From the NCBI RefSeq assembly GCF_009931435.1, contig NZ_CP043414.1: a stretch of 64,000 nt of DNA, one strand, 5' to 3'. Numbering within the stretch: position 1 is the stretch's first letter; the number at the start of each line of letters is the position of its first letter. The DNA is from Escherichia coli. GTDB taxonomy: Bacteria > Pseudomonadota > Gammaproteobacteria > Enterobacterales > Enterobacteriaceae. Shown here piece after piece: positions 12,001 to 18,000 of this stretch. Position numbers: made by a program.

Positions 12001-15000
12001 AGGATTCGGCAAGCAGTATGTGGATGCGTCATGTCGGAGGGCACGAACGTTCAAGGGCCGGTGACGGTCAGCTAAATACTCAGGCTAACCGCTATGTATT
12101 GCAGCTAGGCGGCGATTTGGCGCAGTGGAGTAGCAACGCGCAGGATCGCTGGCATCTCGGCGTCATGGCAGGCTATGCCAATCAGCACAGTAATACTCAG
12201 AGTAATCGTGTGGGTTATAAATCGGATGGGCGCATCAGCGGTTACAGCGCTGGGATGTACGCGACCTGGTATCAGAACGATGCGAATAAGACCGGCGCTT
12301 ATGTTGACAGCTGGGCGCTGTATAACTGGTTTGATAACAGCGTCAGTTCCGATAACCGTTCTGCTGACGACTATGATTCTCGCGGTGTGACGGCCTCTGT
12401 TGAGGGTGGATATACCTTTGAAGCGGGAACATTTAGCGGCAGCGAAGGGACGCTGAATACCTGGTACGTCCAGCCACAGGTGCAAATCACCTGGATGGGT
12501 GTGAAAGATTCTGACCATACCCGGAAAGACGGAACACGCATTGAAACGGAAGGTGACGGAAACGTGCAAACGCGACTTGGGGTGAAAACCTACTTGAACA
12601 GTCATCACCAGCGTGACAATGGTAAACAGCGTGAGTTCCAGCCTTACATTGAAGCGAACTGGATCAACAACAGCAAAGTCTACGCCGTGAAGATGAATGG
12701 TCAAACCGTAAGCCGTGATGGTGCGCGTAATCTCGGTGAAGTACGTACCGGGGTTGAGGCGAAAGTAAATAACAACCTTAGCCTGTGGGGGAATGTCGGT
12801 GTGCAACTAGGTGATAAAGGCTATAGCGATACTCAGGGCATGCTGGGTGTGAAATATAGCTGGTAAACCGTATAAGCCGCATGTCGAAGATGGCATGCGG
12901 CTGCTTAATATTGCCGACTTCAAACGACTTTTAAATCCTCCTTTTTATCCGCGATCGCGGATATCACAGTGTTTATCCCGTAGAGCGGATAAGATGTGTT
13001 TCCTGATTGACTTTATCCCCACTAAAGGATAAAACTGATAATATCCCCTTGAACGGATAAATATGCTGTGGACGTATGACATGATGAGCTTTCAGAAGAT
13101 CTATAGCCCAACGCAATTAGCGAATGCAATGAAACTGGTTCGTCAGCAAAATGGCTGGACGCAGAGCGAGCTGGCGAAAAAAATCGGTATTAAGCAGGCG
13201 ACAATTTCCAATTTCGAAAACAATCCTGACAATACCACGCTCACGACATTTTTTAAGATTTTACAGTCGCTTGAACTCTCAATGACGCTATGCGACACGA
13301 AAAATGCCTCGCCAGAATCAACAGAACAGCAAGATCTGGAGTGGTAATGCCTAAACTTGTCACTTGGATGAACAACCAGCGGGTAGGCGAGTTAACGAAG
13401 TTAGCCAATGGCGCGCACACCTTTAAGTATGCACCGGAGTGGTTAGCCAACCGTTATGCCAGACCGTTATCACTTTCGCTGCCATTGCAGAGGGGGAATA
13501 TCACCTCTGATGCCGTATTTAACTTCTTCGATAACCTGTTACCCGATAGCCCGATTGTACGTGACCGGATCGTTAAACGTTATCATGCTAAATCCAAGCA
13601 ACCGTTTGATTTATTGTCAGAAATAGGGCGAGATAGCGTTGGTGCCGTAACGTTATTACCCGAAAATGAAACCATAACGCGCCCGATAATGGCATGGGAA
13701 CAGCTCACTGAAGCCAGGCTTGAAGAAGTATTAACGGCTTATAAAGCAGATATCCCTCTAGGCATGATTAGAGAAGAAAATGACTTTCGCATCTCGGTTG
13801 CTGGCGCGCAGGAGAAGACAGCGCTGCTCAGAATAGGCAATGACTGGTGCATTCCGAAAGGAATAACGCCGACGACGCACATCATTAAATTACCGATTGG
13901 CGAAATCAGGCAGCCCAATGCGACGCTCGATCTCAGCCAAAGCGTTGATAATGAGTATTACTGTCTGCTGCTGGCGAAAGAACTTGGGTTGAATGTGCCG
14001 GACGCAGAAATCATTAAAGCGGGAAATGTGCGCGCGTTAGCGGTCGAACGTTTTGACAGGCGTTGGAATGCTGAGCGAACGGTTTTACTTCGCTTGCCAC
14101 AGGAGGATATGTGTCAGACATTCGGTTTACCTTCATCGGTGAAATATGAATCAGATGGAGGCCCAGGCATCGCGCGGATCATGGCTTTTTTGATGGGGTC
14201 CAGCGAGGCGCTGAAAGATCGCTATGATTTTATGAAGTTTCAGGTGTTCCAGTGGTTGATTGGCGCAACGGATGGCCATGCAAAAAACTTCTCCGTATTT
14301 ATTCAGGCTGGCGGCAGTTATCGACTCACGCCATTTTACGACATCATTTCAGCATTTCCGGTATTGGGTGGCGCAGGAATACACATCAGCGATCTCAAAC
14401 TGGCAATGGGGCTTAACGCATCCAAAGGCAAAAAAACGGCAATCGATAAAATTTATCCGCGACATTTTCTGGCGACAGCAAAGGTGCTGAAATTTCCGGA
14501 AGTGCAGATGCATGAAATCCTGAGTGACTTTGCCAGAATGATTCCGGCAGCACTGGATAACGTGAAGACTTCATTACCGACAGATTTTCCGGAGAACGTG
14601 GTGACGGCAGTTGAAACCAATGTGTTGAGGTTGCACCGTCGGTTAAGCCGAGAATACGGTATTAAGTAAGATATGGGGTTTGGACGTTGTTAATGAGCAG
14701 GACAATCATGACCGCCAACGACTGGATTCTGCCTTGGTTTATGTTTGTCAAAGCTCAGTGAAAATGTCTAATCACTGGCTCATTAGAAATGTCCATATGT
14801 TGAAAAGGCCGCTGCGAAAAACCCTCCCGCAGCGGCCTCTTTAGCATAACGTCATTATGCGAACCAATTATGGTTTGAGTTTATACTTCTGACCATTAAT
14901 GATTTTTTTGATTAACTCTAATGCAGCGGGGGAATATTTATGAACACCTTCCTTCCCCGTTTTCACTAGCACATGATAGTTATTATCTGAGGATTTAATA

Positions 15001-18000
15001 TTAAAACCAGTTTCCTTGTGTATTCTTTCTAATACTTTATGGACGTAATGCCAAGATCCCATATCAAGTAATTTTGCAAGTTCAGATATGGTGTAGGGAT
15101 AGCTTGCGTTAAGTGCTTGACCATTATTTAACTCTGCAATTCCATAAAGTTTCGCTAACACGTTATCTTGCTCAGCAATGTTCTTAAGCATTTCAAAATC
15201 ATATGGAAGCTCTTGTTTTACAAGAGATTGAGAGGCAAATGTATAGGTTCTGGCTAATAGCGCCCTGACTAATTTTGGGTTAACACTGATTTCTGGCGTA
15301 TTTGACGATAGGGCATCATAAATCCAACCGAAATCATTGGCATAGATCACTTTGATTCGGATGCTTTTATTTTCACCAACACCAATCAAAATCTCTTTCT
15401 GGTGTGAACCTGTACCTTCACATTCTGGACTAAAGGAAACCAAATAAATATTCGGAATCAAAGCGTTATTCGGCGCAATTATCTCATCAATATCAGACAG
15501 GATGGCTTTAATATTCTCATCATTAATACTATAGCCAATGAAGAACAACGGATGCTCGACGAAATATGTTAAAAGTTTTGCACTGATATACTTTTTACGC
15601 TTATAAAACTCAACATAATCTTCATTTGTTATAATGATGCTTTCTGGTTCTTTACTACTGCCGTGAATCTTCATGATTTCACCGTATGTAGTATAGTTAA
15701 CAGTCACAACATTATGGCCAACTATCGGTTGGTAGTTATCAAATATCTTTTCAAGCAGATCGTCATAGTTTGTTGTAATAATGGCATGGGGCCTTACTTT
15801 TTTTAACTTTTCAATTTCTTCAGTGTACTCCATTGCTGAAAAATCAACCGAGTCTGAAAGGTTATTCAACAATGTTGCAATCTCATGCTTGATATAAATA
15901 TCTTTAGAGCTTTTTCCATTGAAATACTGTTCAGGATAACGAGATGTCCCCACATCCCAAGCCCACTCAGCGTATGACTCAGAAAAATCACTTGCTATCA
16001 ATGGTTTATTGTCATTTCTTGTTTGACTGTAGTAACCATACGGGCGAGTGATTAATGGGCAAGTTTCAGCGAGATACTTTAACAGGTTTTCCCAATCAGG
16101 AGCTTTCAAGTAGCGTTGAGATACCCCTGCACCCATAAAGAGAATTGGCTGTACCTGTAAACCTTCAAGACATGATTTGATATCTTCAATTATTTCTGTC
16201 TGATATTCAGAGAAGTCCATACTTTAGCCTTTAGGATGTGAGATGCTGGAGTAGTAAATCGCCGCGGAGCGGTTCGGGGTTCTGTGACACTCGAATTTTA
16301 CCTCGGTTATATAATATCATTGAAGTTATTTGCATTTCTCAGAAATCTTCTCTGGCTTTAATTGCTATAGCCGAAAGATAGCGCACACATCGCCGTTGGT
16401 CAGTTAGTACGAGGTTTCCGCCAAGTTCACCTTTTACCAAAGATGGCTTCAGAGCTTCCCTGAAGCTTTATCATGGCTTCAAGTAGGTCATCTTCGTTCA
16501 GTGAGCGCTGAGATTTGTTGATGCTAGGGGCGTGCCGTCTGCAGGAAGGCTCATCACCAGAACAAGGTAACGATTGTGAGCGATTATTGTCCCGTTTTGT
16601 CTGGATCTGACGGGCAACATCCAACACATGGCCAAGTCTCTTGTTATCTACAATGGCGACGCTCTCAACCTCAGAAAGCCGGTCATAGGTGGAGTAGGGC
16701 AGCAGCATGCCATTTAGTCGCAGCTCCTTATGTCCGTCAGGATAATGCCAGACATCAATGTACTTGCCGATGGCTCTTCGACTGTATTCGCTGTCCTCAA
16801 TCAGATAGAGGATTTTATCGTATTGTACAGTCAGACTTTTTGATACACGCCGGGGCTCTCGCCAGGTAAATTCCGCATCAAGGTCATCGTCTAGTGCCAG
16901 TGGCCGGTGCGCGTTAAAATCATGCAAGGGCGCTTTGGCAAAGCGTCGGTTGTAATCCGCAATGTATTCTTCTGCAAATCCATTGGCCGCTTCTATAGTA
17001 CAGATTCCCCTAAGCCTGAGTTCCTTAACCAGCCGGTCCTGAAGGGTTAGATGAGCACGTTCCACACGGCCTTTTGCCTGACTGGTTTCTGCGCACAGCG
17101 GTGTGATATTGAGGGAGCGCATGGCCCTGGCAAACTGAGTTTCACCGGGACCGAGGGTAGCATGCTTATTGTTTACCCGGAAGACATTGGCTTTGTCGCT
17201 GTAGAGGATCATGGGCTTACCATGTTTTTCGATATAGCCAAGAGTTGCTTCAAAATAGGTAAATGTGGATTCAGATTTCACAAACAGCAAGTGCATCAGG
17301 CGACTGGTGGCATCGTCAACATAGACAAGAGCTGTACAGGGTCGACCCCGGTTTTCAAACCAGTGGTGGTCACAGCCATCAATTTGTATCAGCTCGCCAG
17401 TACAAGGCCGCCGGTAACGAGGCTGATGAATTTTAGGTGCGCGCTGTCTGCGTGGGATCCAGAGTCCGGCTTTTATCATGAGACGTCGGATGGTTTCTTT
17501 GCCAAGGACCAGACCGTGAACTTCCTCCAGTTTTTCCCGCGCCAGCGTGGGGCCAAAATCACGGTATTGCTCCCTGATTATACTGAGAGCCTGATCTGTC
17601 AGTGACGCTGGCAACAGACGGTTACCAGTGCGGCCACGACTCTGGTTGTTCATGCCAAGCGGTCCGAGTTGACGATAGCGTTTCAGCAGTCGGCTGCAAT
17701 GACGTGGTGTAATGCCGAGCATCTCCGCAGCTTGGCCAGGACGCAGATTGCGATCGATGACATCCTGAAGGATTTTGAGGCGGTTGATTTCTTTCACGTT
17801 GAACATCCCGGCGTCATGTATAGCCATAGAAAACTCCTCATCAGGAAAAGTGAGTCGTTGTCTAGACATACAGGTCTGAGAACTATAGCCTGGACATTCC
17901 AATGAGCCACAAATAGACATTAGCATTGAGCCTCTACAATGTTGGTGCGCATAATGTATATTATGTTAAATAGCCTACGATGGTAAACAACTTCATATCT

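Follow-up and report, generated by a model that had tools for sequence, protein, structure and literature searches.

What has brought a solitary SIR2-family gene to the flank of hipA in Escherichia coli, and what might it do there? In a stretch of 64,000 nucleotides from this organism (RefSeq assembly GCF_009931435.1, contig NZ_CP043414.1; the whole stretch is hereafter called the window), we find a 450-amino-acid (aa) protein with a SIR2 domain of the defence type to be encoded inside a transposable element next to the chromosomal dif site. The transposed unit comprises positions 14746-17938 (3193 bp) and holds both the transposase and the SIR2 gene. Of all that is proposed below, we are surest, and not far from certain, that the SIR2 gene was delivered as the passenger of a dif-targeting transporter insertion sequence (IS), whose cargo slot is exchanged with filamentous prophages. 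As the best explanation of the locus as a whole we favour, with restrained confidence, a stand-alone defence SIR2 of the NADase type that is controlled by a winged helix and travels as IS passenger. An earlier note on this DNA (the original prediction) had described the gene as wedged between the hipBA module and an IS; instead, it lies within the IS, between the element's own inverted repeats and ATGTT duplications. The element and its target are delimited as follows.

14741-14745 (no strand): target-site duplication ATGTT on the hipA side; the same pentamer stands at 17939-17943
14746-14784 (no strand): right inverted repeat (IRR), outer end 5'-TGT; imperfect, about 39 bp, with about 29 of 39 positions matching 17901-17938
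14868-16220 (minus strand): SIR2-family gene, 450 aa, ATG start; identified by translation and by profile, PDB and Foldseek matches
16427-17926 (minus strand): transposase of the ISNCY/IS1202 family; NCBIfam NF033594 transpos_ISNCY_2, E=1.4e-141, 472 bits against a cutoff of 250
17901-17938 (no strand): left inverted repeat (IRL), outer end ACA-3'
17939-17943 (no strand): target-site duplication ATGTT on the dif side, directly outside the IRL
17944-17971 (plus strand): perfect 28-bp E. coli dif site GGTGCGCATAATGTATATTATGTTAAAT; exact match, 0 expected by chance; XerC arm toward the IS

The boundaries of the transposed unit follow from the inverted repeats, their TGT/ACA ends, the ATGTT duplications and the break in homology to E. 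coli K-12, which stops at 14742 and resumes at 27102; an insertion absent from the hipA-ydeT interval of K-12 had indeed been anticipated. In an independent plasmid copy of the IS, homology to the window begins at 14741. A plasmid copy matches window positions 14741-14866 at 97.6% and 16262-17972 at 91.6%, with a gene of the STM4504/CBY_0614 family in between, and the intergenic DNA upstream of the SIR2 gene matches plasmid IS copies from 16262 outward. The transposase open reading frame (ORF) lies 206 bp upstream of the SIR2 gene on the same strand, in keeping with the ISNCY-like transposase expected there, and the identical locus is annotated in RefSeq as ISNCY family transposase. Further copies include one of 2801 bp that carries STM4504, has an AACAT duplication and occupies a plasmid Xer site, another such copy of 2812 bp with a TAAGT duplication at a different location, and a further SIR2-carrying copy with a different right-hand flank. 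Such independent insertions, each with duplications of its own, suggest that the unit moves as a whole. The sister IS with the STM4504/CBY_0614 gene abounds on large E. coli plasmids, its transposase often being annotated as frameshifted: it was seen beside a dif-like plasmid site in NZ_CP098208.1 (locus L017) and at about 590 E. coli plasmid places.

Why did the element insert here? The 28-mer at 17944-17971, which we take, as established knowledge, to be the dif site in the XerCD-dif system, occurs identically in K-12, where it follows the hipA-side flank at once, uninterrupted by an IS; the K-12 pentamer corresponding to 14741-14745 is ATATT, abutting dif, as compared to ATGTT in the window. 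Read outward, the order in the window is IRL, 5 bp and GGTGCGCATAA of the perfect dif, and three plasmid copies (L017, L019 and L063) likewise abut dif-like sites. Two papers describe a subgroup of the IS1202 family, formerly filed under ISNCY, whose members insert beside dif or plasmid Xer sites, at 5-6 bp from the XerC arm, with the left end toward the site, TGT/ACA ends and duplications of 5-6 bp. According to the same papers, a few "transporter" members (ISKpn21, ISKpn63, ISKpn65, ISRel10) carry unrelated passenger genes of unknown function. Each of the published dif-targeting traits was found in the window element, so that the insertion between hipA and ydeT is explained by dif, not by hipBA. 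Judged by the published criteria, not by phylogeny, the element thus bears the marks of a transporter IS of the dif-targeting kind within the IS1202 family (ISAba32/ISAjo2 type). The DNA to the right of dif (17972-27101), a separate mosaic of remnants, is likewise absent from K-12, which places the whole island at the chromosome dimer-resolution site.

The protein itself is best described by parts, all of them encoded on the minus strand.

15306-16220: SIR2 fold, aa ~1-305
15768-15770: codon of N151
15663-15665: codon of H186
aa 313-368 of the protein: conserved segment, modelled with low confidence
14871-15116: winged-helix-like domain, aa ~369-450

In the translation, we read the motifs GAGVS (aa 30-34), TTNYD (aa 149-153) and KIHGS (aa 184-188) exactly where the original prediction had placed them, and the gene is AT-rich relative to the backbone, as it had also held (GC content of 0.35-0.38 over 14750-16249 versus 0.45-0.53 in the flanks). 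The sole Pfam match is SIR2_2 (PF13289; E=3.2e-25, aa 146-266), with no match reported to the classical sirtuin family (Pfam SIR2, PF02146). Among PADLOC profiles, the single-gene candidate PDC-S25 (PDLC04968) ranks first (E=2.5e-82, protein aa 10-354), followed by much weaker matches to ThsA, LmuA, Dsr1 and Dsr2; the ThsA profile covers the SIR2 part only (E=2e-19, aa 130-248), and SIR2/Aga profiles reach E values of 0.004-0.012 at best. No NCBIfam model exceeded its cutoff for this protein (23.7 bits for the Dsr2 model, against a cutoff of 1400). In the PDB, the nearest sequences are chains of DSR2, ThsA and KomC (E of 1e-8 to 1e-5), the alignment pairing N151 and H186, of TTNYD and KIHGS, with DSR2 N133 and H171, the latter being the histidine changed in the deposited DSR2(H171A) structures. 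An AlphaFold2 model (mean predicted local distance difference test score, pLDDT, of 79.8) shows a confident SIR2 fold up to about residue 305, for which Foldseek ranks DSR2, KomC and ThsA at the top. The domain is of the defence type (SIR2_2), not that of a housekeeping sirtuin, in line with what had been proposed.

The C-terminal region, of which the original prediction had left roughly 190 aa unassigned, is not SIR2. Residues 313-368 are modelled with low confidence although conserved in sequence, while the small domain behind them is confident and has as fold neighbours ParA N-terminal domains, MerR-family regulators, GlnR/TnrA, Xis proteins and small terminase subunits. To regard aa ~369-450 as a MerR/excisionase-like winged helix is reasonable but unproven, the fold being a predicted one. 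Might such a protein use NAD+ to modify a target, through ADP-ribosylation of DNA or protein or through deacylation, with the winged helix guiding it to DNA and no depletion of NAD+? SIR2 chemistry permits transfer reactions, a DNA-binding-like domain is fused to the catalytic part, and RefSeq labels the gene "NAD-dependent protein deacylase". This name, however, is generic, SIR2_2 is matched without any match to the classical sirtuins, and the nearest characterised relatives (DSR2, ThsA, KomC) have been deposited as NADases; we consider target modification improbable.

How widespread is this protein, and does it travel with a partner? A search of 5.8 billion proteins returned a tight family of ~450-aa proteins with 43-80% identity end to end, from Enterobacterales, Vibrio, Acinetobacter, Pseudomonas, Paenibacillus, cyanobacteria and others, and a precomputed PF13289 match is present in every homologue listed. 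In an alignment of 35 members (43-80% identity), G30, G32, T149, T150, N151, D153, K184, H186 and G187 are invariant, and so are C-terminal residues including R319, R324, T325, Y326, G360, N371, W390, N413, H416, Y429 and S430. Among 5426 complete E. coli genomes, 218 hold the gene at ≥99% identity (99.6-100%), adjacent to hipA every time, and 44 further ones a ~73%-identity variant located in the ypjA island close to an ankyrin-repeat gene; the gene thus occurs in ~4-5% of complete E. coli genomes. Elsewhere, a homologue is flanked by restriction-modification genes and a recombinase on one plasmid, more distant ones reside on Vibrio and Photobacterium plasmids and at the end of Pf-type filamentous prophages of Pseudomonas aeruginosa, and a homologue in Yersinia rohdei, on its own, adjoins a dif-like sequence.

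A housekeeping or decaying gene with no current function would sit comfortably in an island this rich in gene remnants and ISs. Yet the ORF is intact and full length with all family-invariant residues present, its sequence is 99.6-100% identical across the 218 E. coli genomes, and a frequency of ~4% of genomes, always on mobile DNA, is incompatible with a housekeeping role. We therefore give this explanation very little credence, and housekeeping homologues in a non-defence context, which were to speak against the original prediction, did not turn up: there is no match to classical sirtuins, and the gene is confined to ~4-5% of E. coli genomes.

No conserved partner gene was found in at least six unrelated neighbourhoods of SIR2 homologues with 45-80% identity. 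As had been noted before, TIR, HerA, Argonaute and STAND genes are missing near the SIR2 gene in the window; ThsB/TIR and HerA genes are absent from the window and from the homologous loci examined. Genes of 253-256 aa near the homologues of P. aeruginosa, the E. coli ypjA island and Vibrio plasmids were considered as partners and dismissed, since they share 10-18% identity with one another and are not homologous. In three P. aeruginosa loci (L013-L015), a 47%-identical homologue ends a Pf-type filamentous prophage (Zot, DUF2523), and a 256-aa gene of unknown function follows 34 bp after it on the same strand.

Because no neighbour is conserved across six independent contexts, the evidence favours a single-gene unit over an orphan. 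The original prediction had left room for the latter, namely for a member left behind when the IS insertion cost its system the partner; candidates would be the multi-gene SIR2 systems of the Thoeris, SIR2-HerA, SPARSA, Kongming and AVAST types. It is true that SIR2 NADases often are effectors in multi-gene systems, and IS sequence adjoins the gene 41 bp upstream of its start codon. But the gene sits between the IS's own inverted repeats and duplications with nothing beside it interrupted, the same IS ends hold other genes in the same slot, and full-length homologues occur in six unrelated contexts without TIR, HerA, prokaryotic Argonaute, STAND or any common neighbour. Moreover, the 450-aa architecture is conserved throughout, from Proteobacteria to Paenibacillus and cyanobacteria, and the PADLOC family model is a single gene. 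A lost partner is thus most improbable. Of the single-gene, NAD+-depleting abortive-infection effector that had been proposed as the other possibility, the single-gene part has gained support from the lack of a common neighbour and from the single-gene PADLOC family; its chemistry and abortive outcome we infer.

Full-length homologues of the protein were absent from 50,697 phage records. Relatives of the N-terminal part (aa ~18-329, ~31% identity, lacking the winged helix) occur in temperate phages of Firmicutes and Actinobacteria; records H101-H134 include Bacillus phBC6A51, Mycolicibacterium J1, Lactococcus BK5-T, streptococcal prophages and B. anthracis plasmids of pXO2 size. As these phage and plasmid relatives hold the N-terminal ~310 aa without the winged helix, the catalytic SIR2 module appears to pair with varied C-terminal modules.

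Does the protein belong to a system already described? Like its best profile match, PDC-S25, it stands as a single gene and resides on mobile DNA. Of the 517 profile positions, however, just 10-349 align, leaving the C-terminal third not in common; with only these first ~350 positions shared, the window protein must end in a different C-terminal domain, shorter and winged-helix-like, and PDC-S25 is itself a candidate family only. DSR2 of Bacillus subtilis is the closest solved SIR2 domain by both sequence and fold, N133/H171 being equivalent to N151/H186, and also acts as a single-protein system; it differs in measuring ~1000 aa and in binding the phage tail tube protein through its C-terminal part (MID and alpha-solenoid domains), and shares only ~16-19% identity over the SIR2 fold. 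The DSR1/DSR2 size class as such, ~1000-1200 aa with large C-terminal sensor domains, does not accommodate a 450-aa protein. With Thoeris ThsA, the protein has the SIR2 NADase domain in common, but it lacks a SLOG/Macro domain, and no ThsB/TIR gene is nearby. The adjacent HerA helicase gene of SIR2-HerA (Nezha) is absent in all contexts examined, the APAZ domain and adjacent Argonaute gene of SPARSA were not found at the window gene, and the likeness to Kongming is limited to the SIR2 domain of KomC (~260 aa), its partners KomA and KomB being absent from the neighbourhood. Since the defining partner or domain of each was sought and not found, the gene is not Thoeris, DSR1/2, SIR2-HerA, SPARSA or Kongming. 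A preprint on a "sole-Sir2" (bioRxiv 10.1101/2024.12.27.630466) reports a protein that converts NAD+ to ADP-ribose in vitro and a homologue that protects against T2 and T4. This, too, is a stand-alone SIR2 protein, of ~440 aa; compared by description only, its SIR2 domain forms the C-terminal part and its N-terminus is not DSR2-like, the reverse of the domain order seen here. In the open-access papers and preprints searched, we found no function test of PDC-S25, which is mentioned once, as a list item, and no mention of the RefSeq accession of the SIR2 protein. What is already known, then, is a catalogued, apparently uncharacterised PDC-S25-like family and an IS family with known dif targeting; what appears to be new is that passenger genes of such ISs are identified as defence genes, and that a slot is common to ISs and inoviruses.

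Defence SIR2 NADases such as DSR2, ThsA, KomC, SIR2-HerA and SPARSA remain inactive until they are triggered; they then hydrolyse NAD+ and halt the replication of the phage at the cell's cost. By analogy, the SIR2 protein of the window may act in the manner of DSR2 or ThsA: most likely, it would be an NAD+ glycohydrolase that stays inactive until infection and then depletes NAD+, with an abortive outcome. The N-terminal catalytic domain, with its GAGVS loop, N151 and H186, would be joined through the strongly conserved ~55-residue segment to the winged helix, a putative sensor or control module that probably binds DNA or a DNA-mimicking phage product. Winged helix and the 313-368 segment together might sense the trigger or mediate assembly on it, with DNA or a DNA-like ligand as a first guess, and no partner gene would be needed. 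How firmly do we hold these steps? A role against phages or other mobile elements is probable by analogy with the relatives, and, given such a role, NAD+ depletion is highly probable as its chemistry; that DNA is the ligand, a suggestion drawn from the predicted fold and again presupposing such a role, is plausible but less than an even prospect.

As for its delivery, the 3193-bp transporter IS would have entered beside hipA, at 5 bp from the dif site's XerC arm, and brought the SIR2 gene with it. Within the IS, the gene occupies a defined slot with recognisable borders.

14807-14837 (minus strand): GC-rich hairpin GGCCGCTGCG...CGCAGCGGCC, with TTTTC behind it on the gene strand; lies inside the IS and probably serves the cargo gene as terminator
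14839-14865 (minus strand): dif-like (Xer-type) site GGTTCGCATAA-TGACG-TTATGCTAAAG, beginning 2 nt past the stop codon of SIR2; orientation opposite to that of the true dif
16262-16307 (minus strand): conserved leader ACCGAGGTAAAATTCGAG-TGTCACAGAACCCCGAACCGCTCCGCGG at the upstream edge of the cargo slot, common to transporter IS copies with different cargo and to inovirus prophages

On the gene strand, the order is transposase, leader ending in ...GTGTCACAGAACCCCGAACCGCTYCGCGG, cargo, dif-like site, hairpin terminator and right inverted repeat. The hairpin, lying between hipA (which ends at 14669) and the SIR2 gene, accounts for the terminator that had been noticed downstream along with hipA; it is kept with every cargo type, and in the Yersinia rohdei copy its stem is retained through double changes (GCCGCCTGCG/CGCAGGCGGC). 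The dif-like site agrees with the dif arms at 10 of 11 and 9 of 11 positions around a 5-nt centre, and in both transporter IS and inovirus copies it follows 0-20 nt after the last cargo stop codon. Its geometry relative to dif (14839-14865 minus, 17944-17971 plus) is that of Acinetobacter pdif modules, in which inverted XerC/XerD-type sites bracket genes; in the window, however, one of the two sites is the chromosomal dif, and the bracketed DNA includes the transposase.

At the other border, similarity to the plasmid IS ends at 16262, 41 bp upstream of the SIR2 start, and a 21-mer of the leader lies at 16269-16289. That the leader might be specific to the IS was considered and rejected: 50 of 85 occurrences have no transposase upstream, many of them lying in inovirus prophages, so that the leader is common to both kinds of element. 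In inovirus copies, the leader (~60 nt) opens with a 7-bp hairpin, mostly with a GAAA loop, that clearly covaries (5 of 7 pairs change on both sides; covariation of 0.38 versus ≤0.09 in shifted controls) and that is eroded in IS copies. Next come a 7-bp stem (GTTCGGG...CCCGAAC) enclosing TGTCACAGAAC and a short hairpin of the form CGC-loop-GCG; the covariation counts cover the first hairpin only, as the search pattern fixed the sequence of the second and third. Four leader-containing loci gave no Rfam family at the gathering threshold, and a promoter scan near the SIR2 gene returned nothing above shuffled expectation, with no site inside the leader.

What else is carried in this slot? Loci were scanned for by an exact match to 21 nt of the leader, a requirement that under-samples them, and metagenome contigs are often short. 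From species-representative genomes came 10 loci (Rosenbergiella, Lonsdalea, Yersinia, Erwinia, Izhakiella, Edaphovirga, Kluyvera, Lelliottia, a Lachnospiraceae-labelled contig, and Streptomyces, the last being probably a chance match), and from metagenomes 72. Across the scanned loci, the first genes after the leader are of at least 20 different kinds: STM4504 in 19 loci, with a weak match to PDC-S32 (E=4e-9); SIR2 in 7; Shedu SduA in 5 (E=1.7e-115); a protein with a TIR domain (SAVED-TIR model, E=2.7e-11; PDC-S66 is matched as well); PDC-S31 (E=3.9e-48); several proteins of ~360 aa whose N-terminus carries a membrane helix; and groups of 2-4 small proteins devoid of matches. At least 15 unannotated cargo types share the slot with SIR2 (loci L017-L101, e.g. 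L036/L078, L041, L056, L074, L085, L044 and L046), including three related ~360-aa membrane-helix proteins, a 250-aa membrane/coiled-coil protein and a 334-aa protein; these are candidates for undescribed defence genes. Among 84 loci, the IS transposase is present in 34 and inovirus genes (pI/Zot, pIV, Rep) in 29, with neither transposase nor phage genes in 19 within the stretch examined; the window element itself contains none of these inovirus genes. On one contig, two inovirus prophages stand in tandem and differ in the cargo carried at this same position.

Filamentous prophages integrated at dif in marine Vibrio carry a variable, defence-enriched accessory locus at a fixed place (ISME J 2024, PMC11630473). 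The resemblance extends to Enterobacterales inovirus prophages, in which the leader-cargo-xrs module also occurs; the window differs in that its module lies inside an IS and is devoid of inovirus genes. The ISAba32/ISAjo2 subgroup (ISKpn21, ISKpn63, ISKpn65 and ISRel10 included) shares with the window IS the transposase family, the TGT...ACA ends, imperfect repeats of ~25-40 bp, the 5-bp duplication, a left end 5 bp from the XerC arm and a passenger gene. Published members, by contrast, mostly measure ~1.5 kb and stem from Acinetobacter, with passengers reported as unrelated hypothetical proteins; going by these descriptions, the window IS is set apart by an exchangeable slot that is bounded by leader and dif-like site and holds recognisable defence genes. 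Within open-access papers and preprints, we found neither a description of one slot common to an IS family and inoviruses nor a paper tying ISNCY/IS1202 elements to defence cargo.

The company the gene keeps raises the question whether it serves its vehicles rather than the host. [quoted passage not shown] The vehicles are indeed a dif-targeting IS and filamentous prophages, the C-terminal fold resembles DNA-binding domains of excisionases, partition proteins and small terminases, and the same possibility has been raised for the accessory loci of Vibrio inoviruses (PMC11630473). Then again, the family is also found on plasmids and islands unconnected to dif or inoviruses, the co-cargo Shedu is a validated anti-phage nuclease, and an antitoxin-like partner is absent. 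We rate service to the element as unlikely, though the least so of the alternatives considered, and retain the stand-alone defence gene as the preferred explanation.

More generally, the slot between leader and dif-like site may be a dedicated, exchangeable cassette position common to a dif-targeting IS family and to dif-integrating filamentous phages of Enterobacterales, that is, an Xer-site-linked cassette system carrying anti-phage defences of one or few genes to the chromosome terminus and to plasmid resolution sites. We put this forward tentatively and regard it, for now, as doubtful. Cargo could be exchanged through homologous recombination between the conserved flanks or through Xer action at the internal site, both routes being possible. 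If the cassette system were real, most of the more than 15 unannotated cargo families would be undescribed defence genes, and the SIR2-winged-helix protein would be a DNA-sensing NADase.

The remainder of the window offers several observations in their own right. To the left of the SIR2 gene lie hipB and hipA, and beside hipB a large autotransporter (7398-12866) occupies two separate ORFs, of 1470 aa and 334 aa; the same autotransporter is a single 5421-bp gene in strain R32_14_1F (ECSE_1600 family) and the yneO pseudogene in K-12, and it is probably disrupted in the window, too. At 18559-19048, a 64-aa ORF corresponds to the C-terminal half only of Xre/ParS-type antitoxins (RES-Xre systems) and overlaps a 103-aa helix-turn-helix ORF that matches the PADLOC "control protein"; as no RES toxin gene was seen, the Xre/ParS ORF is probably a remnant. 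A leucine-rich-repeat (LRR) ORF at 19692-20738 resembles the LRR part of type III effectors of the SspH2/SlrP/IpaH type, without the remainder, and directly adjoins an IS21-type element (istB 20754-21536, istA 21533-22555). A 225-aa ORF at 22569-23246 contains a run of KTS repeats (KTSKTSKTSKTSKTSK) and matched no family. Finally, the fimbrial usher at 29164-31815, a homologue of ydeT, is full length (883 aa), whereas K-12 retains the 3' part only, with homology from 30589.

What does this mean for the biology of such elements and their hosts? For a gene annotated generically as a SIR2 family deacylase in ~4% of complete E. coli genomes, the analysis provides a hypothesis, namely that of a one-protein NADase with a small winged-helix control domain. 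The passengers of IS1202-family transporter ISs gain a likely function, as they appear to be anti-phage defence genes. A cassette with the same leader and dif-like site, common to IS and filamentous prophages, points to gene flow between two kinds of element that exploit Xer/dif, and the neighbourhood of dif, along with plasmid resolution sites, emerges as a place where defence genes may accumulate. Candidate defence genes could be caught cheaply with the two short boundary motifs as bait: scanning once for exact matches already yielded about 20 cargo types, most of them unannotated.

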